IMG/VR virus record: IMGVR_UViG_3300025909_000005
DNA length: 64,000 nt
Origin: a virus
Lineage: Duplodnaviria; Caudoviricetes
Strand: one strand, 5' to 3'
A program made the position numbers and the translations under genes. The notes beneath the pieces are model-generated. The model worked only from the letters and a program-made list of their open reading frames with translations. It did no database searches and was not told the origin of the DNA. Below, one piece after another: positions 6,218 through 52,154 of this stretch. How positions within the stretch are numbered: the first letter of the stretch is position 1; each line of letters starts with the position of its first letter.

Positions 6218-7011
6218 CAGACCAAGACATCATCAACCTCATCGACTCCAAGGTTCAAAAGATGGAGACCGAATTCAGTCAAGGCATTGACCAGCTCGTC
6301 AATGACATTGACACGTGCTTGACCGAGCATCTTACCAATGTGGTCCACAGCGTAGATGGCAAGACAGGTCACATCTCACTGGGGTCGGACTACCTCTCGC
6401 TGTCAGGTGGCACGATGACTGGAAACCTCAACGTGGCTGGTGACGTCAACGTCAGCGGCGGCGTCACCCTCTTCGCGCCCGTTATCTCACAAGCAAGCGG
6501 CACAGTTTGGCCGCAGAACTCTTCAACAGCTGGACAAACGAATGGGCCTACCGCTGGCCCGACAACTGGTCCGCTGCCAGGCAACTCGATCCCTCCGATT
6601 CATGGTGGATACCCAGCGGTGGGCACCGTCGTCTCAGGTGGCAGCATCGGCATCGGCTCAGTGAACACTACTGTTGCAGCAGCCGCCGCCGGTGCCATGT
6701 ACCCGCCAGCCGGCTACTCCAACACCATGACGGTGACGAGTTCAATCTACGTGGGTGACGATGAGCTCATGGAGGAAGACGTGGCCTACTCCATGGACCC
6801 AGAGCTTCCACCTCTCGTCATCGACTCCATGACCGAAGACGGTACCCGCATCGACCTCGTCCTGACTCCGGACTACAGCGCTCCTGCCATGGATCTTTTC
6901 AAGATCATGGTCGCAGTTGCCAGCTACGCGGACCAGTCGTCGTTCAACTTCTACCTGTACGTCAAGAAGCACAACCTTGAGCGTCACTTCAAGTTCGAAG
7001 AGGTGCTGTGA
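6214..7011 (+). CDS. hypothetical protein with a tail-fibre-like LSLSGGTMTGNL motif
   Basis: ATG 6214 overlaps the uvsY stop; central G/T/P-rich low-complexity segment. Confidence 0.7.
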   Translation: MTDQDIINLIDSKVQKMETEFSQGIDQLVNDIDTCLTEHLTNVVHSVDGKTGHISLGSDYLSLSGGTMTGNLNVAGDVNVSGGVTLFAPVISQASGTVWPQNSSTAGQTNGPTAGPTTGPLPGNSIPPIHGGYPAVGTVVSGGSIGIGSVNTTVAAAAAGAMYPPAGYSNTMTVTSSIYVGDDELMEEDVAYSMDPELPPLVIDSMTEDGTRIDLVLTPDYSAPAMDLFKIMVAVASYADQSSFNFYLYVKKHNLERHFKFEEVL

Positions 7012-11002: not shown

Positions 11003-11584
11003 ATGACCTACAGCATCGCATTTCAAAAAGCAATCAACAACGTCATGAAGTATGAGGTTGGTGGATTCTGGAATGTGAATGATCCAGCTGTTCCGCAGGG
11101 GCTGATCGATACGTACGCCCATCGCCGCGCGGTGGGTTACACGAACGACCCCAATGACAACGGCGGTGAGACGAAGTTCGGTGTCGCAAAGTCAGGCAAC
11201 CCTGACCTTGACATTACGGACCTGACGTGGGCTCAAGCTCAGTCCGTCTACTTCATCCGCTACTGGCTTGCCGCGCAGTGCGACAAGCTTCATGACCGCG
11301 TTGCTGCCCTTCATTTCGACGGTGCAGTCAATCACGGCATTCGGCGCGAGAACATGTTCCTTCAACGTGCAGTTGGCGTGACACCTGATGGTGTCGTAGG
11401 TCCTGTCACTCTCGCCAAGACGAATGGCATGAACGACATCACGGTCTGCAATCGCATCTGCGACCAACGTGAACAGTTCTACCGCAACATCGTCGTCAAC
11501 AATCCTTCCCAAGCTAGGTACCTTGCCGGCTGGCTGCGTCGTGTAGCCGAGGTTCGTGCCTGGACGACGGGTCCAGGCTTCTAA
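11003..11584 (+). CDS. endolysin, glycoside hydrolase family 108 with C-terminal peptidoglycan-binding domain
   Basis: GYTNDPNDNGGETKFGV, YFIRYW, HFDGAVNHG, LQRAVGVTPDGVVGPVTL, GWLRRV. Confidence 0.88.
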   Translation: MTYSIAFQKAINNVMKYEVGGFWNVNDPAVPQGLIDTYAHRRAVGYTNDPNDNGGETKFGVAKSGNPDLDITDLTWAQAQSVYFIRYWLAAQCDKLHDRVAALHFDGAVNHGIRRENMFLQRAVGVTPDGVVGPVTLAKTNGMNDITVCNRICDQREQFYRNIVVNNPSQARYLAGWLRRVAEVRAWTTGPGF

Positions 11585-14064: not shown

Positions 14065-14264
14065 CAAGAGAAGAGTTTGACATCGAACTCCGTAAAGTGT
14101 GCGACGCGACAAAGGGTTGCGTCGTCTTCACGGGTTCACCAACACGAAGCGACGCCTTCCTCGGCGAATTTTCGTTCGACGCCGCATGGCGGTTGTGGCT
14201 GAGAGATGGTTACACCGGCATGCGCGTGACGACCGAAGAAGAGAGCAACGACGAAATTTTCTAA
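14061..14264 (+). CDS. hypothetical protein between nrdA and nrdB
   Basis: overlaps both neighbouring start/stop codons. Confidence 0.5.
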   Translation: MTREEFDIELRKVCDATKGCVVFTGSPTRSDAFLGEFSFDAAWRLWLRDGYTGMRVTTEEESNDEIF

Positions 14265-15397
14265 TGAGCCAACTAGACTACACCAAGATTCCCGACTACG
14301 CCCACCGCCAGATGTTCCTGGACCCGGCAGGCCCAGTCACCATTCAGCGCTACGAAGAGTATGCGTTCCCAAAGCTGGCACAGTTCCTTGCGACACAGAA
14401 GGGCGCATTTTGGTCGCCAAATGAAGTGACGTTGATGAAGGATCAGATTGACTTCAAGGAAGCATCGAAGTCGACCCGCCACATCTACACGTCGAACCTT
14501 CTGCGTCAGACGATGCTCGACTCCATTCAGGGTCGTTCGCCTGTTCAGATCTTCACGCCTGTCTCGTCCGTGCCTGAGATGGAGGGCCTCGCCCTCTGGT
14601 GGTCGGCCTTCGAGCAGATCCACAGCGAGTCGTACTCGCACATCATCAAGAACATCTACCAGGTCCCAGTCGAGCAGTTCAACGCCATTCACGGCATCTC
14701 TGAGATCACCGAGATGGCCTCAGGCATCGACCTCCACTACAACCACTTGCACGAGCTGAACTCCAAGATCGTCGCCTACCAGAAGGCCAAGCGAGAAGGT
14801 GCTCCTGCAATCGTGCTGAAGTGGCTCGAGGTCACCGAGCATGACCACGTCAAGGCAATCTGGATGGCGCTCATCGCGTCCTACGGCCTTGAAGCGATTC
14901 GCTTCATGGTCTCGTTCGCGACGTCCCTCGGCATGGTCGAGAACAAGATCTTCATCGGTTCAGGCAACCTCATCTCCCTGATTCTGCAGGACGAAACGCT
15001 TCACACGAAGTGGACCGCCTACATCATCAACCAACTGGTGAAGGTTGACCCACGTTTCCGTGAAGTCGCCAACGAACTGCGCAAGGAAACCCTGGACGCC
15101 CTCATCTCAGTCATCGATGAAGAGAAGAACTGGGCACGCTACCTCTTCAAGGAAGGCCCAATGATCGGCCTAAACGAGAAGATCATGGTGGACTTCGTCG
15201 ATCACACAGCTCCACTGAAGCTTGCTGAGATCGGTGTCAAGATTCCGACGCGTGTCAAGTCGACCCCGCTGCCGTGGTACAACAAGCACTTCAACACAAA
15301 CAAGAAGCAGACTGCGCTCCAGGAAAACGAGAGCGTCAGCTACGTCCTTGGTGCCATGACAAGCACCATCAACTACGAAGAACTTCCTTCCCTCTAA
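14264..15397 (+). CDS. nrdB: class Ia ribonucleotide reductase beta subunit
   Basis: LDSIQGR, FEQIHSESY (radical Tyr), LEAIRF, QDETLH diiron motifs. Confidence 0.95.
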   Translation: MSQLDYTKIPDYAHRQMFLDPAGPVTIQRYEEYAFPKLAQFLATQKGAFWSPNEVTLMKDQIDFKEASKSTRHIYTSNLLRQTMLDSIQGRSPVQIFTPVSSVPEMEGLALWWSAFEQIHSESYSHIIKNIYQVPVEQFNAIHGISEITEMASGIDLHYNHLHELNSKIVAYQKAKREGAPAIVLKWLEVTEHDHVKAIWMALIASYGLEAIRFMVSFATSLGMVENKIFIGSGNLISLILQDETLHTKWTAYIINQLVKVDPRFREVANELRKETLDALISVIDEEKNWARYLFKEGPMIGLNEKIMVDFVDHTAPLKLAEIGVKIPTRVKSTPLPWYNKHFNTNKKQTALQENESVSYVLGAMTSTINYEELPSL

Positions 15398-28389: not shown

Positions 28390-28417
28390 TGTACTTGGTG
28401 GGGCCATGGGTTATAAT
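28389..28417 (+). promoter_or_regulatory. early-type promoter
   Basis: GTGTAC-N17-TATAAT. Confidence 0.75.
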
Positions 28418-28423
28418 CAACCC

Positions 28424-29044
28424 ATGGACTACACCGAATACTCGTACCTCTGGCCTCCGCGGCCCGAGACGAAGATCGCGCGGCCGATGCTCGGCTTCTA
28501 CCAGAACAAGGGCTTCTTCGCGCAGAAGAAAAAGAACGGCACGTGCACGGTCATCTTCGCTCGTGGCAAGCAGGTCATCTTCAAGACCCGCCACGGTGAC
28601 GAGAACAACGGCGACCACAAGCTCTGGACGCCGAACGCCGAGCACAAGAAGTTCTTCTCGGGTTCCGAAGGCTGGAACGTCTTCGTCGCTGAGCTGCTGC
28701 ACAGCAAGGTCTCCGGCGGCCCGAAGGATCACCTCTACATCTTCGATCAACTCGTCGACAACGGCGTGTCGCTCGTCGGCAAGACCTTCAATGATCGCTA
28801 CCAAGGGCTGAAGGCCCGCTTCGGTGGCGAATCTCAAGACGATCACTTCCTTCTCCATGAGCACGTCTCATTGGCGAAGTGTTTTAAGGGCGGCTTCGAG
28901 AAGCTGTTCGCGAACCTCAAGAAGGAAGACGAAGGCCTCGTTCTCAAGGACCCCAACTCCGTGCTGCAGCCTTGTCTCCGCCCCGATTCCAACTGGGGTT
29001 GGCAGGTCAAGTGCAGGATTCCTCAAGCCAACTACTCATTCTGA
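28424..29044 (+). CDS. minimal ATP-dependent ligase-like nucleotidyltransferase (adenylation domain only)
   Basis: motif I QKKKNGT, III VFVAELL, IIIa YIFD, IV EGLVLKD, V WQVKCR; no OB domain. Confidence 0.65.
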   Translation: MDYTEYSYLWPPRPETKIARPMLGFYQNKGFFAQKKKNGTCTVIFARGKQVIFKTRHGDENNGDHKLWTPNAEHKKFFSGSEGWNVFVAELLHSKVSGGPKDHLYIFDQLVDNGVSLVGKTFNDRYQGLKARFGGESQDDHFLLHEHVSLAKCFKGGFEKLFANLKKEDEGLVLKDPNSVLQPCLRPDSNWGWQVKCRIPQANYSF

Positions 29045-30238: not shown

Positions 30239-31129
30239 ATGATGGAAACCCCCATTCCCCCACAAAAGCCGATTCTCACCATCAACGAGGATCGTCTGCC
30301 TGCAGATGAAGCCTACATGCAGATCGCAGAGATCACCGCCCGACGTTCGAAGGCACGTCGCCTCCAGGTCGGCGCGATCATTGTGCGCGGCACCCAGCTC
30401 ATGTCCGACGGCTACAACGGCATGCCAGCCGGCTGCAAGGGCGAAGACGAAATCTGCGAGTACATCGAGACAATCGAGACACCTCCGAACCAAGGTGATC
30501 CATACGGTGACACGCGGTACGAGGTTCGCACGAAGCCAGAGGTGCTTCACGCCGAGGCGAACGCGATCCTCAAGTGCGCGCTGAACGGTAGGGAAACAGA
30601 GGGTGCCACCCTCTACACCACGTACTCACCGTGCCCCGAGTGCGCGAAGCTGATCAAGCAGGCGGGCATCAAGCGCGTCGTGTTCCGCAACCACTACCGC
30701 AGGCCAGAAGGCGTTGGCCTTCTCACAAAGTGGGGCATCAAGTGCGAGCAGCTCGACAACTTCCCTGACACCGTTCCAGCTGCGGCGTTCGACGTTCCAG
30801 TGCAGGAAGAGACGGCTGGTCCGATGGATCAATATCGGCTGCCCGAGGGCAAGCTCATCATTCCAACTCTCGATGACGTCCTTGAGCTGCCGAAGGAGTT
30901 CGACCTCATGCTGACCTACGATGGCGTGGTTCACAAGCTCTACCCTGATGGCATGTTCGGCCTCGCGATGGACCCGCTGAGCGGGGGCGAGAATGGGTCT
31001 GCATACCTGCTCAATGAGTTCACTGCTGTCGACGAGGATCAAGGGCGCTGGCAAGATTGGCCCGCAAACACGAGAATCTTCGCAAGAGTAACGACGTCAC
31101 ATGCCGTGAAACACGCGCGCAAGCTGTGA
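30239..31129 (+). CDS. dCMP deaminase with C-terminal extension
   Basis: RLQVGAII, GYNG, HAEANAI, PCPECAKLI. Confidence 0.88.
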   Translation: MMETPIPPQKPILTINEDRLPADEAYMQIAEITARRSKARRLQVGAIIVRGTQLMSDGYNGMPAGCKGEDEICEYIETIETPPNQGDPYGDTRYEVRTKPEVLHAEANAILKCALNGRETEGATLYTTYSPCPECAKLIKQAGIKRVVFRNHYRRPEGVGLLTKWGIKCEQLDNFPDTVPAAAFDVPVQEETAGPMDQYRLPEGKLIIPTLDDVLELPKEFDLMLTYDGVVHKLYPDGMFGLAMDPLSGGENGSAYLLNEFTAVDEDQGRWQDWPANTRIFARVTTSHAVKHARKL

Positions 31130-31425: not shown

Positions 31426-31769
31426 CCCAACACCTGAAGCTCGTTGAAGTTACCGTCGAAGGAAAGACGGGATTCCTGGTCTCTCCGCACCCCAGTTGCT
31501 GGGACCCGGCGCCGATCACGGATGACCCGACCAAAGCCTGCAACTTCAACGAGACGTGGCAGCCGTACGTGAACGGCGGGCTTAAGGTGAAGCACGACCT
31601 CCAGCAGACTCTCGACTCGCTCGTACACCCGCAAGACGAGATGTTCGCGAAGTCGGGGCTGCGCATCGATGACCTACCACACGTCGTCGAACTCGAGGTC
31701 AGCGTGAGCTGGATCGAAACCGATCGCAGGCTCGGACGAGGACCACACCGTGCGCCAGCTCAAGGTTGA
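31422..31769 (+). CDS. hypothetical protein
   Basis: coupled 115-aa ORF. Confidence 0.55.
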   Translation: MTQHLKLVEVTVEGKTGFLVSPHPSCWDPAPITDDPTKACNFNETWQPYVNGGLKVKHDLQQTLDSLVHPQDEMFAKSGLRIDDLPHVVELEVSVSWIETDRRLGRGPHRAPAQG

Positions 31770-32292
31770 GCTCGCAGATCGGACGCTTCGCTTCGACGGA
31801 GTTTCAGAGGTTGCACCTGAGGAGCTGGCAAAGTTCCTGCTTCTAGGTGCCAAGCCCGAGGAGCTCCGTGTTGTGGGGTCTGAAGAGGACATCGCGCAGT
31901 TCAATGCAGCTGCTGGAGATGTTCTGAAGCTCGCCAGTGATGAGCCCATCTCACTGAACATGGGCTACATCCTCCCTGAGAACTACGCGAAGCTGGACCT
32001 CGATGTCTACTTCCAGATGAAGTACGACGAGGCCTGCCTCAACAAGAACGTCAACGAGCAGATCAAGATGCTTGACCGCATCGTCGCAGAACTCGAGGAG
32101 GTTCACCGCCGTGGCATGGACCAGTTCATGCGCACGATCATCTACATCCTCGATACCTTCCGCCAGAACAACGTCGTGTGGGGAGTAGGTCGTGGTTCGT
32201 CTTGCGCGTGCTACCTCCTGTTCTTGGTCGGCCTCCATGCCGTCGATTGTGTTAAGATGGAAGTTCCAATGACAGAGTTCTTCCATGAATAA
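31750..32292 (+). CDS. dnaE: DNA polymerase III alpha-like, N-terminal piece of a split catalytic core
   Basis: WGVGRGSSCACYLLFLVGLHAVD matches the PolIII-alpha GPGRGS..GSLVAY.LGIT.VDP segment. Confidence 0.75.
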   Translation: MRQLKVELADRTLRFDGVSEVAPEELAKFLLLGAKPEELRVVGSEEDIAQFNAAAGDVLKLASDEPISLNMGYILPENYAKLDLDVYFQMKYDEACLNKNVNEQIKMLDRIVAELEEVHRRGMDQFMRTIIYILDTFRQNNVVWGVGRGSSCACYLLFLVGLHAVDCVKMEVPMTEFFHE

Positions 32293-32893
32293 CCCCTACC
32301 CAAGCCCCTGGTCTGGCCGCAACAGCGAACCAGGCGAACCGACTGCCTTCACTCTGTGGTACTCCGTGGAGTTTCGTGCAGCGCTTCGGTTTGAGGAAGG
32401 TCTCGAACAGCTCGAATCTGACCGCCGAAACTTGGACATCTACGAACGGCAAACTGGCTCCACGATACACGTCATGCGTATTCGGCAGGAGCTGGACGAA
32501 ATCGAGAAGAGGTTTAAGCGGTACATCCAGCAGCGTGATGGGGCTGAGGACGAAGAGGAGAAGCCGTCGCGAGTTCCTGAGAACTTCCAGAAGGGCTACG
32601 CCATTCGTCTGGCTGACCTGCCGCCCGGCGGACAGGTTCTGTTCGATGGGAAGTACTCGAAGGACAAGGACACCATCCTCGCCCTGATCAAGCTGCGGTA
32701 CGACGTCGACATGTTCGACTCCGATTTTGTGGACGAGTTCGATGTCTCGATGATGACCCGTGAGGAGGCCTACTCCCTCCGTCTGATCGACCTGGATGGC
32801 TGGATAGACATGAAGTTTGAACCACAACCATGGGTGAAGAACACTGAGCTGAACGCGGACAAGACCAAGTGGAGGACCAGGAAGCTTCCGTAG
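32285..32893 (+). CDS. hypothetical protein
   Basis: 202-aa ORF. Confidence 0.7.
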   Translation: MNNPYPSPWSGRNSEPGEPTAFTLWYSVEFRAALRFEEGLEQLESDRRNLDIYERQTGSTIHVMRIRQELDEIEKRFKRYIQQRDGAEDEEEKPSRVPENFQKGYAIRLADLPPGGQVLFDGKYSKDKDTILALIKLRYDVDMFDSDFVDEFDVSMMTREEAYSLRLIDLDGWIDMKFEPQPWVKNTELNADKTKWRTRKLP

Positions 32894-32906
32894 TCTTGGG
32901 GCGGTG

Positions 32907-32938
32907 GCCTATAAATAGGCTAGTGCGATAAATATCGC
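32907..32938 (+). promoter_or_regulatory. tandem late promoters, each in a palindrome
   Basis: GCCTAT-AA-ATAGGC and GCGATA-AA-TATCGC, both containing TAAATA. Confidence 0.6.
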
Positions 32939-32961
32939 CTTTTCACCGGAGAACCAAGACA

Positions 32962-33192
32962 ATGGGACAACTAGTACGTAGCGCCCGTGGCGAGCTGATC
33001 GACTTCGAACTGCTGGCCATCAAGCAACAACTCGCGTCAGCCCCTGTTCCCAAGGCCGTCGAGCAGCGCAAGAAGGCAATCGACTTGAAGGACGGCGTAA
33101 AGTCGGACGTCAAGCCAGATGTGGACTTCTTGAAGCCTTCCCTCGAGGCAGCTGCGGCTTCAGGACAAGCGAAGCAAATCAAAAGGAAGTAA
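32962..33192 (+). CDS. hypothetical late protein
   Basis: 76 aa downstream of the TAAATA boxes. Confidence 0.7.
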   Translation: MGQLVRSARGELIDFELLAIKQQLASAPVPKAVEQRKKAIDLKDGVKSDVKPDVDFLKPSLEAAAASGQAKQIKRK

Positions 33193-33193
33193 G

Positions 33194-33391
33194 ATGTCAG
33201 CATGCGCCTGCATGGGCCCGCCAGGAAACTGCTACTGCATGAGGCAGGCCCGAGGAGAGAAGATCGCGATCACTGAGACGCAAATCTCCGCAGATCTGTT
33301 TGACCTTCTCCCTGATGAGGACAAGAACACCATCAACGACCTGAAGGTCAAGGCGCTGGGTCTATACCTCGTCGCGAAGAATAAGAAATAA
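33194..33391 (+). CDS. hypothetical protein
   Basis: CACMGPPGNCYC N-terminus. Confidence 0.55.
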   Translation: MSACACMGPPGNCYCMRQARGEKIAITETQISADLFDLLPDEDKNTINDLKVKALGLYLVAKNKK

Positions 33392-33400
33392 GGAATCACC

Positions 33401-33724
33401 ATGCAAGTTGAGCCACTGCGCGACAACATCATGTTCCGCTTTCTCGATGAGACGAGCGGTTCAAAGGGCAAGTTCACCGATCGCCAGACCGCTTCTGGCA
33501 TCATCATCCCAACCCTCGACTCCTCGCAGAAGAATCCGCGCTGGGGTCAGGTGCTCGCAGTCGGTCCTGACTCGCAGGTAAACGTAGGCGACTACATCTT
33601 CATCGAGGCCCTTCAGTGGACCTTCGGCACGGAGATCGATGGCCAGAAGATGTGGAAGACCGAAGACAGCCGAGTTCTCTTCGCCACGGAAGATGAGACC
33701 CTCGTCTACAAGATGGAGGTCTGA
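33401..33724 (+). CDS. groES: GroES-like co-chaperonin
   Basis: EPLRDNI, TASGIIIP, GQVLAVGPD, VGDYI. Confidence 0.88.
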   Translation: MQVEPLRDNIMFRFLDETSGSKGKFTDRQTASGIIIPTLDSSQKNPRWGQVLAVGPDSQVNVGDYIFIEALQWTFGTEIDGQKMWKTEDSRVLFATEDETLVYKMEV

Positions 33725-34182
33725 TGTTCAAGAAGAGCGAATACATTGCATATTCCCCTGAGGGTCTCCTTGATGCGGTTGTTCAAAAGATTCAGGCTCA
33801 GGGCAACTACAGGATCGGTGCACAGCTGCGAGGTCCTGTCGACCAAGTTTGGGACGGCAAGCTCGTTCAGCCGAAGGTGGACCTTCCTGTCGTCTCCCTT
33901 GACAAGCCTATCCCGCACGTTGATGTTCCATCAGTCATGGTGAACGTGACTCGTGTAAAGTTGAACCTTCGCCAACTTGACTGCATCATTCTGCCTGACG
34001 TGAAGAAGTGGCTTTACCCATGGGCTGCTGCTATTCCTCATGCAGAATGGCTGAAGGCTCGATCTCCGGGCGAACTAGTTCATGCAATGGACGATCAGTT
34101 CGACACGACACCATACACCCTAACCGAACAAGACTTTCTTGACCACGAGTACCTGATCTTCTCGTACGCCACGACCGACTAA
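33724..34182 (+). CDS. hypothetical protein
   Basis: 152 aa, coupled. Confidence 0.65.
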   Translation: MFKKSEYIAYSPEGLLDAVVQKIQAQGNYRIGAQLRGPVDQVWDGKLVQPKVDLPVVSLDKPIPHVDVPSVMVNVTRVKLNLRQLDCIILPDVKKWLYPWAAAIPHAEWLKARSPGELVHAMDDQFDTTPYTLTEQDFLDHEYLIFSYATTD

Positions 34183-34184
34183 CC

Positions 34185-35474
34185 ATGTTTTTCATCTTTC
34201 TAACGTTTGCGGCCGCGATCTTCATCGAGGCTCTCGGCAGCCTAGTCTCCGTCATCGGTATCTCTGCCCTGTTTGGCGCGAACCCGATCATCATCGCCTT
34301 GGCCATTGCACTGGACGTTGGAAAGATCGTTACGGTCTCCCTCCTGTACACCTACTGGAAGCAGCTCTCGAAGCTCATGAAGGGCTACGCCCTCATCGCG
34401 GCTGGTGTCACCATGATCATCACCAGTTCTGGTGCAGCAGGCTACCTGTCAGCCCAGTTCCAGACGGCCATTCAGGGCACGAAGGAAGGTGAGCTCAAGG
34501 TGTCCGTACTGAAGGACCAACAGGCCAAGTACGAGGCGCGGAAGAAGCAGATCGACGACCAGATCGCGAACCTCCCAACGAAGACGACCGTCACACAGCG
34601 ACTGCGTCTCATGAAGGGATTCAAGGACGAGCAGGCGGCACTCGACAAGAAGATCACTGACCTCGACAAGCAGCTTCCTGACGCGCAGATCGCGCAGATC
34701 GGCACTGAGGCTCACGCTGGTCCAATCCTGTACATCGCGAAGGCGTTCAACGTGACTGTTGAGCAGGCCGTGAAGTACGTGATCGGCATGATCATCACCG
34801 TGTTCGACCCACTGGCCGTGTTCCTGATCATCGCTGGCAACTTCCTTGTTGCTCAACGTAAGAAGAAGTTGGAGACAGGTGAGTTGGTTCACCGCACTTC
34901 ACCACTCCCTGTATGGGACGAGGTTAAGAAGGCCGCTGAGGAAACGCAACGATACACAGGACCAGAGGTCGACTTCGGTCCACCAGTTGGCAAGGAGTTC
35001 CCGAACGAGGAGCCCGCTCCGATGGTCGGTGACGAGCTCGAGCGGTTCAATCGTGCCCAGGAAGAAGGACAAACTGGCGGGTGGCGACGCGATGACGGCA
35101 CCGTAATCTATCCACAGATGCCTGACTTCGTGCTTGACCCGCTGCCACAACCGGCACTACACGCTGAGCCAGCGAAGGTGAACATCGACGTGCCGATGGT
35201 GGATGATGAGGAGCTCGAAGCCCGTCGTTTGAAGGCGCAGGCTGAGCGTGACGCAGAGCTCGAAGAACAAGCGCGCAGGGAAGCAGAGCAGGCAACTGCA
35301 GCAGCCAAGCGCATGCAACCAGGCATGGACTTCCTGCCGACCCCTCGACAAGAGATCACAAAGTCGACCCTTGGATTGGTCCAGCCTGACGCGAGCACGA
35401 TCGTTGATGCACCTCAGGTGCACGGCTTCAAGCGCTCGCAGTTGATGACCACTCCAACCAAGAAGAAGTCATGA
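34185..35474 (+). CDS. multi-TM coiled-coil membrane protein
   Basis: three N-terminal TMs, coiled coil, TM with FDPLAV, low-complexity tail. Confidence 0.8.
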   Translation: MFFIFLTFAAAIFIEALGSLVSVIGISALFGANPIIIALAIALDVGKIVTVSLLYTYWKQLSKLMKGYALIAAGVTMIITSSGAAGYLSAQFQTAIQGTKEGELKVSVLKDQQAKYEARKKQIDDQIANLPTKTTVTQRLRLMKGFKDEQAALDKKITDLDKQLPDAQIAQIGTEAHAGPILYIAKAFNVTVEQAVKYVIGMIITVFDPLAVFLIIAGNFLVAQRKKKLETGELVHRTSPLPVWDEVKKAAEETQRYTGPEVDFGPPVGKEFPNEEPAPMVGDELERFNRAQEEGQTGGWRRDDGTVIYPQMPDFVLDPLPQPALHAEPAKVNIDVPMVDDEELEARRLKAQAERDAELEEQARREAEQATAAAKRMQPGMDFLPTPRQEITKSTLGLVQPDASTIVDAPQVHGFKRSQLMTTPTKKKS

Positions 35475-35905
35475 CCCACGAGTACATCACCGAGGCACGA
35501 TACAGGGAGCTGCTCAAGCGAGCAGAGGGAAATGAGCAGATGCAGCTCGGAATGCGTGTTCGCTTCCGCGACTTCGTCTTCACGGACCCAATGTACGACT
35601 CGTATGCGGACTATGAGGGTCAGGTGTACATCGTCTCGAAGTTTCGCTGGGACGATGAGTACGCAGAGAACGACTACGATCACGTCTTCCTGAAGAACCT
35701 TGACGGCACTCCAGCCTGCGGTGGGTGCATGGTGCACTCCGGCGATCTCGAATCAGCCGACAAAGCTACCGGTGTTGCTCCTCTGGATTTGTACCCACCG
35801 ACGCACCATTTTGAGCAGACCGTGCAGCCAGTGAGTGAAAACCACCTACTGGGTGCTGACTCTTGGACACGGTGGCTGACCGACACTTTCCTCGGTTCCC
35901 ACTAA
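35471..35905 (+). CDS. hypothetical protein
   Basis: 144 aa, coupled. Confidence 0.6.
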   Translation: MTHEYITEARYRELLKRAEGNEQMQLGMRVRFRDFVFTDPMYDSYADYEGQVYIVSKFRWDDEYAENDYDHVFLKNLDGTPACGGCMVHSGDLESADKATGVAPLDLYPPTHHFEQTVQPVSENHLLGADSWTRWLTDTFLGSH

Positions 35906-36039
35906 GTAGAGGGTGGACCTCCGCTGCCGCTTTGGTCTGCATGAGTGGACACCATGGTCCAGACCATTTCAAAAGAGAATGAACTCGTTCTGGTTCAGCC
36001 GGCGCTTTTGCCCGCACTGCCAGAAGATAGAGGAGAAAG

Positions 36040-36267
36040 ATGTTTCAGTTTCCATGGCCAAAAGGGACCGTTCATTCCTATGAGCTTCCCGCCGACTTCC
36101 TTGATGCTCTAAACGAGTTTTACGTGAGCTCGGAGGGATACGTCAGTGACGAGCTACCCATTCACCACACTGCCACCGAGGGTCCTTACATCGGCTTTGC
36201 GGGGTACAAGGTGCGAGTTACAATAGAAGAAACGTCACCAACAACGTATCTCGTAAGGCTCGCATGA
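36040..36267 (+). CDS. hypothetical protein
   Basis: AGGAG RBS. Confidence 0.6.
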   Translation: MFQFPWPKGTVHSYELPADFLDALNEFYVSSEGYVSDELPIHHTATEGPYIGFAGYKVRVTIEETSPTTYLVRLA

Positions 36268-36503
36268 CCACCCTCGCCGTTCTACTGTTCCTCTTCATGC
36301 TCTTCTGGTTCACGCTTCGCGTGCTAGGGATCATCCTCGCCATTCTGCTTGTCATCATCTTCGCTGCGATCTTCGGCGGCCTGTCGTGATCACTGTGATC
36401 AAGATGGACAAACCGAATCGAATGCTTCGGTTTGGTGGTGGCTTGAACAATGGAAGGTGGTTCGTGCGGTTGGATCTTTGGGCAATTGGAATCAGGTGGT
36501 CGC

Positions 36504-37004
36504 ATGGCGTTTGATCTGTTTGAAAGTCTTGCGAAGCTGTCGAACGGTGACCTGCAGTGGTACGACAACCTCTCAGAGGAAGACAAGAAAACGGCCTCAC
36601 CTCTCGTGCTCGCACGTTGGATGACAGGCACGAGCGACCTTGCCCAACTCGTCCGGATAAATACGTTCGTCAATCCCTACGGGTTCTCTCTCGGTCAAGA
36701 GAAGAGTCTCCTCTTCAAGCTGCTCGCTGCGGCAGCTACGGGGAAAACCCGGCGATACAGTTGGCTCAAGGCACCAGGCACGAAGGTGCAGGTGAAGCAA
36801 CGGGTCGAGGTCATCAAGCAGTACTACGGCGTCTCAACACGCGAAGCCACTCTTTACGCGCAGACAATCTCAGGTGAGGACCTCCTCGAGATGGCTGAAG
36901 AATGTGGTCTGGACAAGGACGAGCTCGCAAAGCTCAAGAAGGAAGTAGCTGATGGATCGGGAAGCACTGAAGGGACTGGCAAAGGGAAGGCGAAACTCAA
37001 GTGA
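36504..37004 (+). CDS. clamp loader small subunit, T4 gp62-like
   Basis: SPLVLARWMT...INTFVN...LLFKLL...KTRRYSWLK pattern. Confidence 0.6.
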   Translation: MAFDLFESLAKLSNGDLQWYDNLSEEDKKTASPLVLARWMTGTSDLAQLVRINTFVNPYGFSLGQEKSLLFKLLAAAATGKTRRYSWLKAPGTKVQVKQRVEVIKQYYGVSTREATLYAQTISGEDLLEMAEECGLDKDELAKLKKEVADGSGSTEGTGKGKAKLK

Positions 37005-37704
37005 GCCTGCTGTCACCCCACGTAAGGTGACCTGGACCTGTGAGTACTGCCAGCACCCGTTCGTAAGCGAGCGGGTCTTCATGAACCACCGCTGCAAGGA
37101 GAAGGGGCGCCTTGAGGAGCTGCGTGGTTTGGTTGGTCAGTCGGCCTACGCGTACTACAGCGAGTGGATGAAGCAGTCGAAGCGCAGCGTCCCACCCCTG
37201 GAAACGTTCGCACACTCGAGCTTCTACTCGACGTTCATCAAGTTTGCGAACCATGTTCGGCGCGTGAACATGCCGAATCCGATGGGCTTCATCAAGATCA
37301 TGGTCAGCAGCAACATTCAGCCATCGCTGTGGTGCCGTGACAACGTCTACGCACTCTACCTCCAAAGCTACGACACGGCTGTTCCTCCCACCACGCAGTT
37401 CATTGACTCGCTCGATTTCGCGCTGTGGATGGCGGGAGAGCACGAGGTACAGCCAGCCGAGGTGTTCTCGGCCATGGGCCTTGAGAAGGTGCTCTTGAGC
37501 GTGCAGAAGCGAAAGCTCTCGCCGTGGTTCCTTGTTGCCTCGAAGAAGTTCCGTGAGTGGATGGCGGCCCAGAACGAGTGGGACAAGTCTCGTCTCGAGG
37601 GTGCAGTCCAGGTTGGTGCCATGATCATGCGCATACAGCAGACTGAGAAGCACATCAAGCTCTTCAAGGAGTTCTCGAAGGCGACTGAGGAAGCAGGCCT
37701 GTGA
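36952..37704 (+). CDS. hypothetical protein with a C2H2-like zinc finger
   Basis: WTCEYCQHPFVSERVFMNHRC. Confidence 0.7.
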   Translation: MDREALKGLAKGRRNSSEPAVTPRKVTWTCEYCQHPFVSERVFMNHRCKEKGRLEELRGLVGQSAYAYYSEWMKQSKRSVPPLETFAHSSFYSTFIKFANHVRRVNMPNPMGFIKIMVSSNIQPSLWCRDNVYALYLQSYDTAVPPTTQFIDSLDFALWMAGEHEVQPAEVFSAMGLEKVLLSVQKRKLSPWFLVASKKFREWMAAQNEWDKSRLEGAVQVGAMIMRIQQTEKHIKLFKEFSKATEEAGL

Positions 37705-37916
37705 CGCGCAAGCTCTTCGATTCGATGGATGAGGACTCCGCCCGCTTCTACCAGCGAATCTTCAACACGGCCCTCCTGAACATGCACGCAGTTCGGCGCG
37801 GCTGGTTCGACACGTTCATCTGCGAGACCGAGGACCCTACGATCTTGATTCGTTGGCGTGAGGCGGTGCCCCAAGTTATAATGCTGCTTAGCGCGGCACG
37901 AGACCGCAATGAGTAA
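37701..37916 (+). CDS. hypothetical protein
   Basis: GTGA-coupled. Confidence 0.55.
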   Translation: MTRKLFDSMDEDSARFYQRIFNTALLNMHAVRRGWFDTFICETEDPTILIRWREAVPQVIMLLSAARDRNE

Positions 37917-37919
37917 AGC

Positions 37920-38492
37920 ATGGACGTAGACATCGACATTGACCCAAACTTCAAGCCGCTTGAGCTGTTCAAGGACTGGCGACGGGCGTCGCTTGTCAAG
38001 GACGGAAAGCTGTCAGCCCACAACGTCGGCGTCTACCCTCAGAAGATCGCGAAGGACCCGATCACGGGCTTCGCGGCAATCCCGTACGAGGAAGCTGAGG
38101 ATCTCGGCTACCTGAAGGTTGACTTCCTTCCGCTTCACGTCTACAAGAACTTCAAGACGCGCGCTGAGATCGACGCGCTCCTCCAGAAGGAGCCAGACTG
38201 GACCCTCCTGCAGGTGCCATCTGTTCAGCCGAAGATCTTCCAGCTTGCCAAGCACGGCGACCTTCTCAGTGACCTGAAGGTAAAGGACGTTCAGGAACTC
38301 GCTGACGTGATGGCTCTCATCCGCCCAGGCAAGAAGGCCCTCGTCGGGCTCTACAAGAAGGAGCGGAAGGCAGCTCGTGCCATGCTCTACGCGAAGGACG
38401 AGACCGGCTACTCCTTCAAGAAGTCACACGCGCTGGCCTACGCCTACGTCGTCTGGCTACAGCTCCACTTGATTGAGCAAGGGCACCTTTGA
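37920..38492 (+). CDS. dnaE: DNA polymerase III alpha-like, catalytic piece of a split core
   Basis: MDVDIDID, HNVGVY, LGYLKVDFL, IFQL, LADVMALIRPG, FKKSHALAYA. Confidence 0.8.
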   Translation: MDVDIDIDPNFKPLELFKDWRRASLVKDGKLSAHNVGVYPQKIAKDPITGFAAIPYEEAEDLGYLKVDFLPLHVYKNFKTRAEIDALLQKEPDWTLLQVPSVQPKIFQLAKHGDLLSDLKVKDVQELADVMALIRPGKKALVGLYKKERKAARAMLYAKDETGYSFKKSHALAYAYVVWLQLHLIEQGHL

Positions 38493-39076: not shown

Positions 39077-39568
39077 ATGACTCAAATCATCTACATCGTG
39101 CGCGGCAGCTGCGGCTCCTACGAGGACTATTCCGAGTGGGACGTGAAGGGCTTCTTCGACCCGGAGAAGGCCAAGCACCGCATGTGGCAAGAGCAGGAGA
39201 ACCTCAAGGAACTCGTGCGACTGACCGAGCTTGGCCGCAACATTTACCAGGAATGGTGCAAGACGCACCCGCGTCCGGTCTGCGCCGACCTGGTAAAGAT
39301 TCCGAACATCCCGCAGGGTGTCAAGAAGAAGGACTGGCCGAAGGACTTCGTGGAACGCCAGAACGCGGCGCGAGAAGAGAACCGAAAGATCGGTGAAGCC
39401 TACACGAAGGAAATGGGAGAGTGGTGGGAAGCTGGCAAGGTCGACGTTCTCGCTGAACTGCGAAAGCACTGCGAGGACGAGGAACTCCTCGCTCGCCTGA
39501 ATCTGCCGCACTGCGGCTATGCCGATCCGGAGACCACCTACGAGATCGTTGAACTGGAAGTAGAATGA
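39077..39568 (+). CDS. hypothetical protein
   Basis: ATG after TATAAT 39065-39070 and GGGAG. Confidence 0.75.
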   Translation: MTQIIYIVRGSCGSYEDYSEWDVKGFFDPEKAKHRMWQEQENLKELVRLTELGRNIYQEWCKTHPRPVCADLVKIPNIPQGVKKKDWPKDFVERQNAAREENRKIGEAYTKEMGEWWEAGKVDVLAELRKHCEDEELLARLNLPHCGYADPETTYEIVELEVE

Positions 39569-40755
39569 AAGAATTCCTGAAGATCACCTACGGCTCGAAG
39601 CTGTACGGAACGAACACGCCCACGTCGGACACCGACGAGAAGGTGGTGTACATTCCTGAGCTCAACGAGTTGCTCCTGTGCAGGACGCCAGGCATCTTCA
39701 AGAGGCGCTTCGATGCTGAAGGGCGACAGCTGAACGACAACGAAAAGATGGCCGACAACGGCGTCGAGACCGAGTACATCCCGCTGCAGCGCTTCGTTCG
39801 CGACTTCGTCGCTGGTCAGACTTACGCGCTGGAGATCGCGCACGGCTACATGTCGAACGTCGACAAGATGACGGTCACCGATGCTGAAAATATGACCCAA
39901 GCGGAGTATGACGAGTTCATCTCCAAAGTGGAGTTCGTCGACGACCTCATCACACTCTTCTCGAACTCCGAGGTCTACTCGATGGTTGGCTTCGCGGCCA
40001 AGCAGACGTTCGACTACGTGAAACGCGGTGAACGACTCAACGAGGCGCGCAAGGTGATGGCTGTTCTGTCAGCAATCCGGCTGGACGTGAGCTTGGAGCT
40101 CGCTGCTCCTACGTCTGTTCAGGTTCCTCCTGAAGGTTCGTGGCAGCTTGAAAGTTCGAAGTTCAAGGTGAGCGACATCGAGACATCGAACCCGAATCCT
40201 GCTCAAGGTCCGAACAAGCGACTTGAGATTCGTCTCGACACGCCGTACCTTGGTGCAGCTGTGCTGGACGCAATCGCGCTGCAGACCGGTCTACCAATTG
40301 GTGAAGCTGTTTCGAACGGCAACCGAAAGCTGCGGACGCTCGAGCTGAACGGTCGGCAGTACCTCGAGACGACCACGATCGATCATGTCACGAGCCAAGT
40401 GGCGAAGTTGATCCAGCAGTATGGTGATCGGTCGACGGATGCGGCAGAAAAGGACGTCGACTACAAGTCGCTGTCTCACGCTGTACGCGTCTACGAACAG
40501 GCAATCGAACTGCTCGATACCCGTCGGATCAAGTTCCCCCGGCCGAACGCTGACTTCCTGCTCGATATCAAGCAGGGTTCGATCAGCCTTGAGACCGTGA
40601 AGGAGCTGCTGTCATCTCTCGACGCAGAGGTGAAGGAAGCCATCGCGACTTCAAAGCTGCCTGCGCGAACGCCCGCTCTAGAGGCTGAAGCTGACAAGTG
40701 GATGCTGGAACAGCTCCAGAAGATCTACAAGACGCACCGTCTCAGCGCGGAGTGA
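39565..40755 (+). CDS. Pol-beta superfamily nucleotidyltransferase
   Basis: YGSKLYGTNTPTSDTDEK; C-terminal DYKSLSHAVR...KFPRPNADFLLDIKQG. Confidence 0.8.
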   Translation: MKEFLKITYGSKLYGTNTPTSDTDEKVVYIPELNELLLCRTPGIFKRRFDAEGRQLNDNEKMADNGVETEYIPLQRFVRDFVAGQTYALEIAHGYMSNVDKMTVTDAENMTQAEYDEFISKVEFVDDLITLFSNSEVYSMVGFAAKQTFDYVKRGERLNEARKVMAVLSAIRLDVSLELAAPTSVQVPPEGSWQLESSKFKVSDIETSNPNPAQGPNKRLEIRLDTPYLGAAVLDAIALQTGLPIGEAVSNGNRKLRTLELNGRQYLETTTIDHVTSQVAKLIQQYGDRSTDAAEKDVDYKSLSHAVRVYEQAIELLDTRRIKFPRPNADFLLDIKQGSISLETVKELLSSLDAEVKEAIATSKLPARTPALEAEADKWMLEQLQKIYKTHRLSAE

Positions 40756-44318: not shown

Positions 44319-45629
44319 ATGAATTTTGCTGAAGTCATCGCAGCCTGTGAGAACTCCACGGGTGGCGGCTCGAAGGCTGCCATCAAGGAACACCTGGCGA
44401 AGCTGGATGCACCGAGCCGGCGGCTCGCGTGGTACGCCCAGAACCCCTACGTCACCTTCTACGTGAAGAAGTTCGACAAGCCGTTCACGTATGCCGAGCA
44501 GGACCCCGAGTCGCTCGACATGTTCTTCGCACTGCTCGATCGTCTCTCGAAGCGTGAGATCACCGGCAACGCAGCCCGCGAAGCCGTTCGCGATGCGCTC
44601 GGCACGTTCACGCAGAAGACCGCCGAGTTCATCGAGCGCGTCATCGACAAGGACCTCAAGGGTGGCTTCAGCGCCGACACCTACAACAAGGTGTGGCCGA
44701 CCGACCCCGTTCCCAGCTGGGAAGAGCAGCTCGCCGAGAAGTGCGAGGAGGTCGAAGACTTCGAGAAGTACGTCACCTTTCCGTGCTGGGCGGACATCAA
44801 GTACGACGGCACCCGCCAGTTCGCGTTCGTTCGCAAGGGCCAGCCGGTCGAGTACCGCGCTCGTGGTGGCAAACCATCAGACCACCTGAACGGCCTGTTC
44901 GACGAGGACCTCCTCGCTGTTCGAGAGCAGCTCGACTACGACTTCATCGTGGACGGCGAAACGCTGTCGGCCGAGTTCGCCGGCGCGATGAACGCCAAGG
45001 GCAGCAAGAACGTGGATGCGAAGAAGAGCCTGATCTTCCGCGCCTTCTACATCATGCCGATCGCCCACTGGATCGAGCAGTCGACCACCATCACGAACGA
45101 TGAAGCCCGCGAGTTCATCGCACGCATGTTCAAGGACACCAAGACGGTTCGTCCGACGGTCGGCCGCATGGTCTCCGACTACAACGACATGATGGCCTTC
45201 TGCAACCAGGTCATCGACGACGAGACGAAGTCGAAGGCCGAGCGTGAAGGTCTGATCCTCAAGGACGGCTCGGCCGTCTACGAGTGGAAGCGGTCCTACA
45301 CGTGGGTGAAGGTCAAGCGCTTCTACGACGTTGATGCACGCATCGTCGGCTTTTACCCTGGCCGCGCCAAGAGCAGGCTCGAGAACACCGTCGGCGGGGT
45401 CAACTGCGTGGCCTTCCTCGAAGGCGGTGAACGCGTCGAGTTCAACGTCGGCTCCGGCTTCAGCGACGCGCAACGCGCCGACATGAAGGCCAACCCCGAC
45501 AAGTGGCTCAAGGGCACCCATGTCATCTCGTACCAGGAGATCACGAAGGCCAAGGGCAAGGAGCTTCGCTCCCTCCGCTTCTGCACGCTGAAGCAGGCCT
45601 TCCGCGAAGACAAGCTGGTCGAAATCTAA
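44319..45629 (+). CDS. ATP-dependent DNA ligase
   Basis: IKYDGTR, IVDGE, EGLILKD, WVKVK, C-terminal OB domain (VGSGFSD); promoter TTTACG-N17-TATAAT 44267-44295. Confidence 0.92.
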   Translation: MNFAEVIAACENSTGGGSKAAIKEHLAKLDAPSRRLAWYAQNPYVTFYVKKFDKPFTYAEQDPESLDMFFALLDRLSKREITGNAAREAVRDALGTFTQKTAEFIERVIDKDLKGGFSADTYNKVWPTDPVPSWEEQLAEKCEEVEDFEKYVTFPCWADIKYDGTRQFAFVRKGQPVEYRARGGKPSDHLNGLFDEDLLAVREQLDYDFIVDGETLSAEFAGAMNAKGSKNVDAKKSLIFRAFYIMPIAHWIEQSTTITNDEAREFIARMFKDTKTVRPTVGRMVSDYNDMMAFCNQVIDDETKSKAEREGLILKDGSAVYEWKRSYTWVKVKRFYDVDARIVGFYPGRAKSRLENTVGGVNCVAFLEGGERVEFNVGSGFSDAQRADMKANPDKWLKGTHVISYQEITKAKGKELRSLRFCTLKQAFREDKLVEI

Positions 45630-46780: not shown

Positions 46781-47632
46781 ATGGACAATATGAAGCCGCG
46801 TTACATTAGAGTCGTTAGCGACCTCCACCTCGAACAGTACTCGGGCAACCGCCCTGAGTTCAATCTGAAGACGTTTATTCCCGAGGATCCTCGCGATGCC
46901 GAGTCAGTTCTCGTGTTGGCTGGTGACATCGACTCTCACCCGGAAACGCTGTACCCGTTTCTTCAAGTTGCACCTACGCGGTTCATGCATGCGATTTATG
47001 TGCCTGGAAACCATGAGTTCTACGGTCACGACATGGATGAGTGGGCAAAGAACCTTCAAGCGCTGGCCGATGCGTACGCCTTTCCAAAGCTGAGTCTCTC
47101 GACGCTGGGTGTTGGCGAGCTGAAGCTAGAGAACGTCCGCTTCATCTTCACCACGTTGTGGGGAGATGGTGGCAAGTCACAATATGAACAGCTGATGGTC
47201 GGAAAGTACCTGCGTGACTTCTCCGTGATTCGTCGCAGTGGGCGTGGCTTCAAGGTGCCCGACATGATCGAGCTGCACAAGCAGCAGCGCGCAGAAGTAG
47301 AGCGTTTGTTGGGCGAACCGTTCGATGGCGTGAATGTCGTCGTCTCGCACCACATGCCCTCGTACCGCTTGTGTCATCCGCGCTTTGGCACGGATGCCAA
47401 TGGCGGTTTCGCGTCGAACATGGACCTGTTCCTGTCGCATGATACCGCGCCGCACATCTGGATTCATGGCCATACGCATGATTCCATCGACACCCGTCTA
47501 TGGAAGACCCGCGTCGTCTGCAACCCATCGGGTTACTACTTTGAGAACGATGCACGCTACAAGAACTTCAAGCCCAGGTTTCTTGACCTAGAGAACCTTA
47601 ATGAGGATCGTGAGGCGCAAGTCGATGGCTGA
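46781..47632 (+). CDS. calcineurin-like metallophosphoesterase
   Basis: SDLH, LAGD, GNHEFY, SHH, HGHTH. Confidence 0.9.
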   Translation: MDNMKPRYIRVVSDLHLEQYSGNRPEFNLKTFIPEDPRDAESVLVLAGDIDSHPETLYPFLQVAPTRFMHAIYVPGNHEFYGHDMDEWAKNLQALADAYAFPKLSLSTLGVGELKLENVRFIFTTLWGDGGKSQYEQLMVGKYLRDFSVIRRSGRGFKVPDMIELHKQQRAEVERLLGEPFDGVNVVVSHHMPSYRLCHPRFGTDANGGFASNMDLFLSHDTAPHIWIHGHTHDSIDTRLWKTRVVCNPSGYYFENDARYKNFKPRFLDLENLNEDREAQVDG

Positions 47633-50756: not shown

Positions 50757-52154
50757 ATGACAGAAGAAATCATCATCGTGGATGACGGCACAGCTGTGGC
50801 CGAGCGCATCAGGGAACTCATCGCTGAAGCAGTGGCAGACGGCCGCAAGCTCGTCACTGTTCGTACCATCGACGCGATCAACGACATCCCCGGTGCCGAC
50901 CTCATCAAGGTCGCACAGATCGAGGGCTGGCAGGTCGTCGTGAAGGCCGGCGAGTTCAACGTCGGAGACCCGTGCGTCTTCTTCGAGGTCGACGCGTTCC
51001 TGCAGCTGAGTGACCCGCGCTTCGCGTTCCTTGAGAAGAACGCCATCACGTGGCACGGTATTCGTGGTGCTCGCCTCAAGACCATTCGCCTGCGCAAGCA
51101 GCTGTCGCAGGGTCTCGCGCTGCCGCTGAAGGACTTCCCAGAGATCATCGCTGAGTGGGACCGTCTCTGCAACGAGCCGGGCGTGAAGGCCGCCAACACG
51201 ACCATTCGTGACGTGAACTTCACTGGCGTCGTTGGCGTCATGAAGTGGGAGAAGATCATGAGCGCCCAGCTGGCTGGTCAGGCTCGTGGCAACTTCCCAT
51301 CCTTCATCCAGAAGTCGGACCAGGAGCGTGCGCAGAACATGGGCGACCGCATCTTCAGCTACGACGAGCAGCTGCGTCCAGTCGACATCAGCGGCATCTC
51401 GATGGAGCAGCTGACCCTCGCCTTCGACGCGAAGCGTATCATCGAGAAGAACGGCCAGTACTTCACGGTCGTGCCGCCGCGTGCCTCACGTGAGACGCGC
51501 TACGACATCACCATCAAGCTCGATGGCAGCTCCATGACGATGTACTGCCGCCTGCCGGACAGCGAAGGTGACATGCTCATCAAGGATGCCGAAGGCAACG
51601 TCATCGGCAACGGCGTGCAGTCAGGCGTCTGCTCTCGCAACCTCGACCTCAAGATCGAGGGCAACGAAGGCAACTCGTTCGTCGACATGGCGCAGAGCGG
51701 CATGCTCGATCAGCTGGTCGAGTACTGCAAGCGGACTGGTCGCAGCCTCGCGCTGCAGGGCGAGCTCATGGGTCCTGGCATTCAGGGCAACCGTGAAGGC
51801 CTGACTGAGAACAAGTTCTTCCTCTACAACATCTTCAACATCAACACGGGCGTCTACCTCGCTCCTGAAGAACGTTACAAGGTGCTGGCAGAGATCAACG
51901 CCCTCGCAGATGAAGGCATCGACCCGCGCTTCAAGTACATCGCGCACGTGCCGGTTCTCTTCCCGACCGAGCGGTTCGGGGATAACGGCATGAGCCTTGC
52001 TGAACTTGGCATCACCGACATGGCATCGCTGCTGAAGTTCGCCGAAGGCAAGTCACTGCACAACGCCGTGCGTGAAGGTCTCGTCTTCAAGGCGTACGAC
52101 GGCACGCACCAGTTCAAGGTGATCAGCAACCTCTACCTCGAACAGGAGAAGTAA
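50757..52154 (+). CDS. RNA ligase, DRB0094/Rnl5-like family
   Basis: N-terminal IPGADLI...GWQVVV...FFEVD; IKLDGSS, QGELMGPGIQGN, EGLVFK, FKVISNLYL. Confidence 0.88.
   Translation: MTEEIIIVDDGTAVAERIRELIAEAVADGRKLVTVRTIDAINDIPGADLIKVAQIEGWQVVVKAGEFNVGDPCVFFEVDAFLQLSDPRFAFLEKNAITWHGIRGARLKTIRLRKQLSQGLALPLKDFPEIIAEWDRLCNEPGVKAANTTIRDVNFTGVVGVMKWEKIMSAQLAGQARGNFPSFIQKSDQERAQNMGDRIFSYDEQLRPVDISGISMEQLTLAFDAKRIIEKNGQYFTVVPPRASRETRYDITIKLDGSSMTMYCRLPDSEGDMLIKDAEGNVIGNGVQSGVCSRNLDLKIEGNEGNSFVDMAQSGMLDQLVEYCKRTGRSLALQGELMGPGIQGNREGLTENKFFLYNIFNINTGVYLAPEERYKVLAEINALADEGIDPRFKYIAHVPVLFPTERFGDNGMSLAELGITDMASLLKFAEGKSLHNAVREGLVFKAYDGTHQFKVISNLYLEQEK

Follow-up and report, generated by a model that had tools for sequence, protein, structure and literature searches.

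Two genes in a 64,000-nucleotide stretch of viral DNA (record IMGVR_UViG_3300025909_000005 of IMG/VR, Duplodnaviria, Caudoviricetes; the whole stretch is called the window below) almost certainly constitute the split minimal DNA polymerase III (Pol III) alpha described by Iyer, Anantharaman, Krishnan, Burroughs and Aravind in 2021 (Viruses 13:63, PMC7824862). The first gene, hereafter the N-half, carries the GRGS nucleotide-binding motif, and the second, the C-half, carries the three catalytic aspartates, the break lying directly in front of the first two. Taken as a whole, our observations are best explained by an accessory heterodimeric C-family polymerase core, an explanation which we consider probable. 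To judge from its conserved residues, the pair is very probably active as a catalyst, and on balance we favour an accessory role for it as a templated DNA polymerase. The heterodimer itself is predicted by structural modelling, and we infer its catalysis, its DNA substrate and its biological role.

Sequence and predicted structure of the two halves

The open reading frame (ORF) of the N-half, which overlaps the end of the preceding ORF, has a GTG start codon preceded by GAGGA 7 nt upstream and ends with the residues TEFFHE. It matches Pfam family PF07733 (DNA_pol3_alpha, E 8e-8) at profile positions 16-95 of 260 only, and phrog_11127 of PHROG over its full length (E 1e-28). The family profile alignment pairs residues 109-181 with residues 319-391 of Escherichia coli DnaE, and therefore places G147-S150 on G361-S364, the GS motif of the Pol-beta fold. 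This GRGS motif is invariant, being present in 52 of 52 aligned N-halves and in all 120 retrieved. The AlphaFold2 (AF2) model of the N-half has a mean predicted local distance difference test score (pLDDT) of 91.8, and in superpositions its residues 73-180 match the fold of E. coli DnaE 277/281-394 with Z 10.2-11.3 and a root-mean-square deviation (rmsd) of 2.3-2.9 Å over 101-107 residues. A search of 48,161 chains, independent of Foldseek, gave Z values of at least 5 for DnaE and PolC chains only, the next best match reaching 4.2.

The C-half starts with an ATG codon 3 nt past the TAA stop codon of the upstream ORF, and its N-terminus reads MDVDIDID. It matches phrog_11778 (E 4e-58), and there is a weak match to PF17657, the Pfam family of the Pol III finger. 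Single-sequence searches of the PDB with the halves gave marginal DnaE matches only, and the DnaE motifs were therefore aligned by profile searches instead. These place K66-V-D68 on L-K-M-D618-F-L of Thermus aquaticus (Taq) DnaE, R135-P-G within E. coli residues 597-642 and F166-H170 within E. coli residues 752-774. The AF2 model of the C-half has a mean pLDDT of 95.7 and a predicted template modelling score (pTM) of 0.86, and the top 17 PDB matches found with Foldseek are all Pol III alpha or PolC-type chains. Over its residues 1-190 the model can be superposed both on E. coli DnaE 401-782 and on Taq DnaE 462-840 (Z ~10, rmsd 3.5-3.7 Å, 183-188 residues). The C-terminal Q-L-H-L-I of the C-half looks like a clamp-binding consensus. 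We rejected it as such a motif, as it sits in the last modelled helix (residues 168-186), where it pairs with a helix of DnaE, and as distant members do not conserve it.

The superpositions locate the break at residue level. The last residue of the N-half corresponds to residue 394 of E. coli DnaE and the first of the C-half to residue ~400/401, the loop 395-399/400 being missing; all that the break takes out of the chain is therefore this loop of 5-6 residues before the DxD strand. Residue 1 of the C-half falls on Taq residue 462, and D2 therefore corresponds to Taq D463. A first-pass annotation, made from the sequence alone, had reported an N-half at 31750-32292 that carries GRGS and stops at TEFFHE before the DxD motif, in agreement with the ORF, the profile and the superposition. 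It had likewise reported a C-half at 37920-38492 that starts with MDVDIDID and keeps KVDFL, RPG and FKKSHA, which the sequence and the alignments bear out.

Much of DnaE is absent from the pair. Neither ORF has a Pfam match (E <= 0.1) to a PHP, OB, HhH or intein/Hint domain, and the PHP family PF02811 matches neither half. About 200 DnaE residues internal to 401-782 are absent from the C-half, including a finger gap of ~110 residues (E. coli ~643-751), and nothing is present beyond DnaE residue ~782, so that the C-half has no clamp-binding, HhH, OB or tau-binding parts. We take the ~200 absent residues to be the thumb and the 'index finger', which Lamers et al. reportedly placed in 2006 at about 433-510 and about 641-756, respectively; the palm and the 'middle finger' would remain. 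The first-pass annotation had also seen no PHP, clamp-binding, OB or intein parts, and this agrees with the absence of such Pfam matches and with superpositions that reach the chain ends.

Conservation and pairing of the halves

A word-index search retrieved homologs of matching length for both halves, 844 for the C-half and 144 for the N-half. The N-half homologs among the matches listed all have GRGS and the ending ...EF[FY]H[DE] (120 of 120), and the C-half homologs listed start with M-D-[VI]-D-I-D. The 262 matches of an exhaustive phmmer search with the C-half, covering 1.84 billion cluster representatives, are nearly all ~190 aa long and begin at query residue 1-2. The DxD motif lies within ~10 residues of the C-half start in 221 of 223 full-length homologs, i.e. 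119 of 120 close and 102 of 103 distant ones. When 65 C-halves (26-76% identity) are aligned, the only invariant columns are D2, D4, K66, D68, R135 and P136, while D6, H34, G37, Y39, H170 and Y174 are conserved in at least 90% of this alignment. The conservation of the ends and motifs of both halves is far beyond chance. Invariant catalytic residues together with conserved ends form the pattern of an active enzyme, and therefore exclude decay.

The two halves also travel together. With tblastn, the C-half is found in 96 phage records and the N-half in 99, with matching genus tallies, and the halves co-occur in about 96 isolates from many host genera. A fused query matches 188 places in 96 phage records, none of which holds both parts in one place, and metagenomic contigs that pair a homolog of the N-half with one of the C-half run into the hundreds. 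The distance between the halves in relatives ranges from 4.2 kb to 182 kb. The N-half precedes the C-half by 4-15 kb in the window and in phages RsoM2USA, XacN1 and CM1, the C-half precedes the N-half by 30-44 kb in 121Q, PA5oct and a Vibrio phage, as in Rak2-like phages, and in Atu_ph07 the halves lie 182 kb apart. Since order and distance vary between clades, the split must be old and the halves have been kept as independent genes. The first-pass annotation had looked to the co-occurrence of both halves across jumbo phages, and their presence in about 96 isolates excludes a decaying pseudogene.

A related-locus search of 185,579 species genomes gave a single locus (NZ_JAZQPV010000069.1, 51.7 kb, locus L006, from an Acinetobacter metagenome-assembled genome), in which the halves lie 7.6 kb apart and are 73% and 54% identical to those of the window. 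Its GC content of 47% fits neither the window (57.6%) nor a typical Acinetobacter, and the locus is probably a binned jumbo-phage contig rather than bacterial DNA. One metagenomic N-half homolog (P0200, 278 aa) has an N-terminal extension of ~95 residues with a PF26948 match, which may stem from a gene fusion or else be an artefact of gene calling.

A natural fused form

We found one natural fusion of the two halves, P0346, a single intact ORF of 375 aa on an ENA metagenome scaffold (locus L004, 1066-2193). HHalign matches residues 9-182 to the N-half profile with a probability of 99.2%; a 9-residue linker, D-F-D-I-D and the rest of the C-half come next, the C-half part being 34% identical to that of the window. 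P0346 thus has the same two modules as the split forms in the same order, including the N-terminal domain and GRGS, with a linker in place of the stop and start codons. Its 2.4-kb contig (25% GC) offers an uninformative context. It is the only fused case among the 262 exhaustive phmmer matches; a word-index search, which is a weak test, gave no longer (fused) C-half relatives, and a pattern scan of viral contigs with P0346 gave no further fused forms. A tree that includes P0346, built to tell an ancestral from a secondary fusion by a quick method and with no outgroup, is a polytomy.

The N-terminal domain and the modelled complex

The first 72 residues of the N-half, which lie outside every DnaE superposition, are modelled by AF2 in the order strand-strand-strand-helix-strand-helix-strand, the first three strands being short. 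Invariant residues in this region include L8, R11, L13, R14, D16, G17, G33 and N52, and the domain is also part of the fused form. No convincing match to its fold was found (best Z 3.2), the palm part filling the hit lists of searches with the full N-half. Atlas matches for residues 1-72 are generic beta-alpha-beta folds, including one weak PHP-like match (template modelling score 0.52), which is a lead only.

The model of the complex between the two chains of the window reaches an ipSAE of 0.90, compared to 0.01 for the best control; the mark used is reached by 58 of 80 solved complexes and by 2 of 110 mismatched pairs. At least 98% of the contacts agree between runs, with a partner pLDDT of at least 90, and the interface includes the expected palm contacts. 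In this model, residues 6-19, 29-38 and 69-75 of the N-half contact residues 26-31 and 40-55 of the C-half, which suggests that the N-terminal domain acts as a clasp on the C-half. Modelling of the complex and superposition on DnaE had both been proposed as checks in the first-pass annotation; the outcome is the ipSAE of 0.90 against 0.01 and Z values of ~10-11.

Genomic context

The genes of the window make up a T4-like module for replication and nucleotide metabolism (Table 1). The gap between the halves is 5,627 bp long and holds about 12 ORFs, including the Cpn10 and phrog_225 matches, as expected from the initial description of two halves 5.6 kb apart around GroES and a gp62-like gene. 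The source phage is uncultured (57.6% GC, on a contig that appears to be ~377 kb long), and the stretch is found in rhizosphere metagenomes of several studies. A Megablast search of 50,697 phage records with the region gave no match, and in its DNA sequence the phage is therefore new; among isolates, Ralstonia phage RsoM2USA comes closest, with 52% identity in the C-half and 36% in the N-half. Three related complete genomes all encode a family B polymerase (3 of 3) and no PHP domain (0 of 3), and each has one PF07733 match, confined to the N-half part.

Table 1. The two genes of the split Pol III alpha, their motifs, and other features of the window, with equivalent DnaE residues or database matches.
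Feature	Position	Strand	Match or equivalent
N-half, split minimal Pol III alpha	31750..32292	+	180 aa ORF
N-terminal beta/alpha domain of the N-half, residues 1-72	31750..31965	+	outside every DnaE superposition
G147-R148-G149-S150, Pol-beta-fold 'GS' nucleotide-binding motif	32188..32199	+	E. coli G361-R362-G363-S364
C-half, split minimal Pol III alpha	37920..38492	+	190 aa ORF
D2-V-D4, first two catalytic aspartates, directly behind the initiator Met	37923..37931	+	E. coli D401/D403, Taq D463/D465
K66-V-D68, third catalytic aspartate and its lysine (KVDFL)	38115..38123	+	E. coli K553/D555, Taq D618
R135-P136-G137, finger motif	38322..38330	+	E. coli R639-P640-G641
F166-K-K-S-H170, finger motif (followed by A)	38415..38429	+	E. 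coli F756-N-K-S-H760
GroES/gp31-like co-chaperonin, intervening gene, not part of the enzyme	33401..33724	+	PF00166 Cpn10, E 1.3e-7; phrog_3188, phrog_931
gp62-like clamp-loader small subunit, intervening gene	36450..37004	+	phrog_225 'clamp loader of DNA polymerase', E 3.7e-6; phrog_11758, E 1.5e-16
gp32-type single-stranded DNA-binding protein	2854-3774		
UvsX	3955-5040		
UvsW-type helicase	7008-8426		
Ribonucleotide reductase	11707-15397		
dCMP deaminase	30239-31129		
ATP-dependent DNA ligase	44319-45629		
RNA ligase	50757-52154		

Several other genes of the window deserve mention in their own right. Just upstream of the C-half, at 36952-37704, lies a gene for a 250-aa protein (phrog_11058, E 5e-35) with a zinc-finger-like Cys-x2-Cys ... 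His-x3-Cys motif; RsoM2USA, 121Q and Atu_ph07 have genes of similar size at this position. An RlaP-type nucleotidyltransferase of the Pol-beta fold (PF10127, phrog_388) is encoded at 39565-40755, 1 kb downstream of the C-half. Together with a polynucleotide-kinase/ATPase-like gene at 1052-2359 (phrog_505), a metallophosphoesterase gene at 46781-47632 and the RNA ligase gene, it forms a scattered set of RNA-repair type. Besides the full-length ligase, a 212-aa ORF at 28406-29044 encodes a partial ATP-dependent DNA ligase adenylation domain (PF01068, E 6e-8) and could be a second split or truncated enzyme. The window also encodes a bifunctional NMN-adenylyltransferase and NUDIX protein of NAD metabolism (62068-63192) and an endolysin with GH108 and PG_binding_3 domains (11003-11584).

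Discussion

We propose that the two genes encode the two subunits of a split minimal Pol III alpha of the group 2.2 jumbo phages (T4-related: Rak2-, XacN1-, Atu_ph07- and PA5oct-like). The halves would be translated separately, neither alone being a complete nucleotidyltransferase fold. From the N-half would come the palm helices and, in the GRGS loop, the binding site for the triphosphate, and the C-half would provide the beta-sheet with the metal-binding residues D2, D4 and D68, together with K66 and the core of the fingers (R-P-G and K-S-H). Non-covalent 1:1 association, without splicing, would yield a palm with a finger stub of ~370 residues, in which the 72-residue N-terminal domain of the N-half would pack on the C-half. 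The site rebuilt in this way would most likely carry out two-metal-ion, template-directed addition of a deoxynucleoside monophosphate to a 3'-OH. Given the absence of the PHP domain, the thumb, most of the fingers and the clamp-binding, HhH and OB parts, the enzyme alone should be distributive. Its most likely role would be an accessory one beside the family B replicase, such as gap filling, repair or part of lagging-strand synthesis. The first-pass annotation had arrived at a heterodimeric C-family nucleotidyltransferase of ~370 aa, a prediction for which the superpositions, the invariant residues, the co-occurrence of the halves, the complex model and the fused form all argue; the roles that it named (priming, gap filling or terminal addition) are conjectural.

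Some points weigh against an accessory templated polymerase formed by the two chains. The loss of the thumb, of ~110 finger residues and of all DNA- and clamp-binding domains makes it questionable whether the pair can grip a primer-template at all. A weak alignment of hidden Markov models places D4, rather than D2, on Taq D463, a discrepancy of two residues with the register of the superposition; we nevertheless favour the D2/D4 register of the superposition because D2 and D4 are invariant. The pass of the complex model may be a recall of DnaE structures: the fold that is divided between the two chains has been solved in DnaE as one chain, and for this reason the model supports binding without showing it. 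No ORF of the size of a family B polymerase was identified within the 64-kb window, and at the ORF syntenic with 121Q gp9 (6139-7011) no Pfam or PHROG match and no similarity pointed to an epsilon-like exonuclease. Finally, no experimental study of the split enzyme, biochemical or genetic, was found in the searchable literature.

The most serious alternative is that the pair is an active nucleotidyltransferase of the Pol-beta fold and yet not a conventional templated polymerase, for example a terminal transferase, a primer-independent or primase-like synthase, a polymerase for modified or damaged phage DNA, or a maker of a nucleotide signal. The Pol-beta fold serves many non-polymerase nucleotidyltransferases. 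This alternative would fit the ~200 residues missing within DnaE 401-782 (the thumb and much of the fingers) and the missing PHP, HhH, OB and clamp-binding parts, as well as the presence of a family B replicase in this phage group and of a phage-specific N-terminal domain without an assigned fold in the enzyme. Nevertheless, the R-P-G and K-S-H finger motifs that are kept are specific to C-family DNA polymerases and strongly conserved, and the genes sit in a replication module with no adjacent signalling or defence genes. In addition, E. coli H760, the equivalent of H170, presumably lies against the sugar of the incoming deoxynucleoside triphosphate (dNTP), which would suggest that dNTPs are used. 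We therefore regard this alternative as unlikely, although it deserves more attention than those that follow.

The small size of the two pieces and the unrelated genes between them could also be read as the decaying remnants of a DnaE broken by inserted genes, or as inactive structural leftovers, but this has almost no probability given that hundreds of homologs of each half share the same ends, that the catalytic residues are invariant down to 26% identity, that the halves persist in about 96 isolates of many host genera with an order and distance that vary by clade, and that both models fold with high confidence. Joining of the halves after translation by a split intein or other splicing, for which split-intein DnaE genes are the textbook case, is just as improbable, since neither half has an intein/Hint match in Pfam at E <= 0.1, since the C-half, starting with M-D-V-D, offers no Cys, Ser or Thr as a +1 nucleophile behind any plausible junction, and since the superpositions extend as far as residue 180, the last of the N-half (E. 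coli 394), and start with residue 1 of the C-half (Taq 462), which leaves no room for intein fragments.

With bacterial DnaE (E. coli, 2HNH and 5FKU; Thermus aquaticus, 2HPI and 3E0D), the pair shares the Pol-beta-like palm, the GS motif and the three aspartates, and equivalents of K553, R-P-G and F-N-K-S-H are all found in the C-half. It differs in consisting of chains of 180 and 190 aa instead of one chain of ~1160 aa, in the absence of the PHP domain, the thumb and most of the fingers, and in the added 72-residue N-terminal domain. The cyanobacterial split-intein DnaE (dnaE-n and dnaE-c) is also a C-family catalytic subunit that comes from two distant genes. However, the cyanobacterial pieces carry intein halves, are trans-spliced to a full-size DnaE and are broken elsewhere in the protein, whereas the phage halves have no intein residues and are broken inside the nucleotidyltransferase fold.

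The arrangement was described in 2021 as a hallmark of the group 2.2 jumbo phages (PMC7824862), and the window is a further example; the caution about novelty in the first-pass annotation was right. In that description, the halves correspond to an NTP-binding and an Mg2+/template-binding subdomain, and the split enzyme accompanies a family B polymerase and may serve the synthesis of one strand or repair (PMC7824862). Our pair shares with it the separate genes, the absence of other Pol III domains and the T4-like replication context. The genome papers of Atu_ph07 and RsoM2USA merely list Pol III subunits. Unlike in the Rak2-like phages and Atu_ph07, the halves in the window are close (5.6 kb) and the N-half comes before the C-half, as in RsoM2USA, XacN1 and CM1. 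What we add is a residue-level structural map of the break, the fused form, the 72-residue N-terminal domain and the clade-specific gene order.

Iyer et al. also speculated that in the split enzyme a model of the Pol III core of ancestral, pre-cellular times has survived (PMC7824862). It is conceivable, if rather improbable in our estimate, that the heterodimer of palm and finger stub is not a scaled-down replicase at all, and that it either has a different activity (untemplated, primer-independent, or on modified or damaged phage DNA that the family B enzyme cannot copy) or is such a surviving ancestral core. If it is not a scaled-down replicase, the 72-residue domain would be a phage-specific substitute for the missing DNA-holding parts, and if the ancestral core is the true reading, the PHP domain, thumb, fingers and OB domain would be later additions to Pol III.

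The accessory heterodimeric core that we favour matters for the C family as a whole. To our knowledge, C-family polymerases are bacterial replicases, and all those that have been studied consist of one large chain that includes a PHP domain, a thumb, fingers and clamp-binding parts. A core of ~370 residues, conserved as two chains and cut within the nucleotidyltransferase fold, would define the minimum of the fold that is needed for catalysis, and it would reveal what use a T4-like replisome makes of a second, unrelated polymerase.

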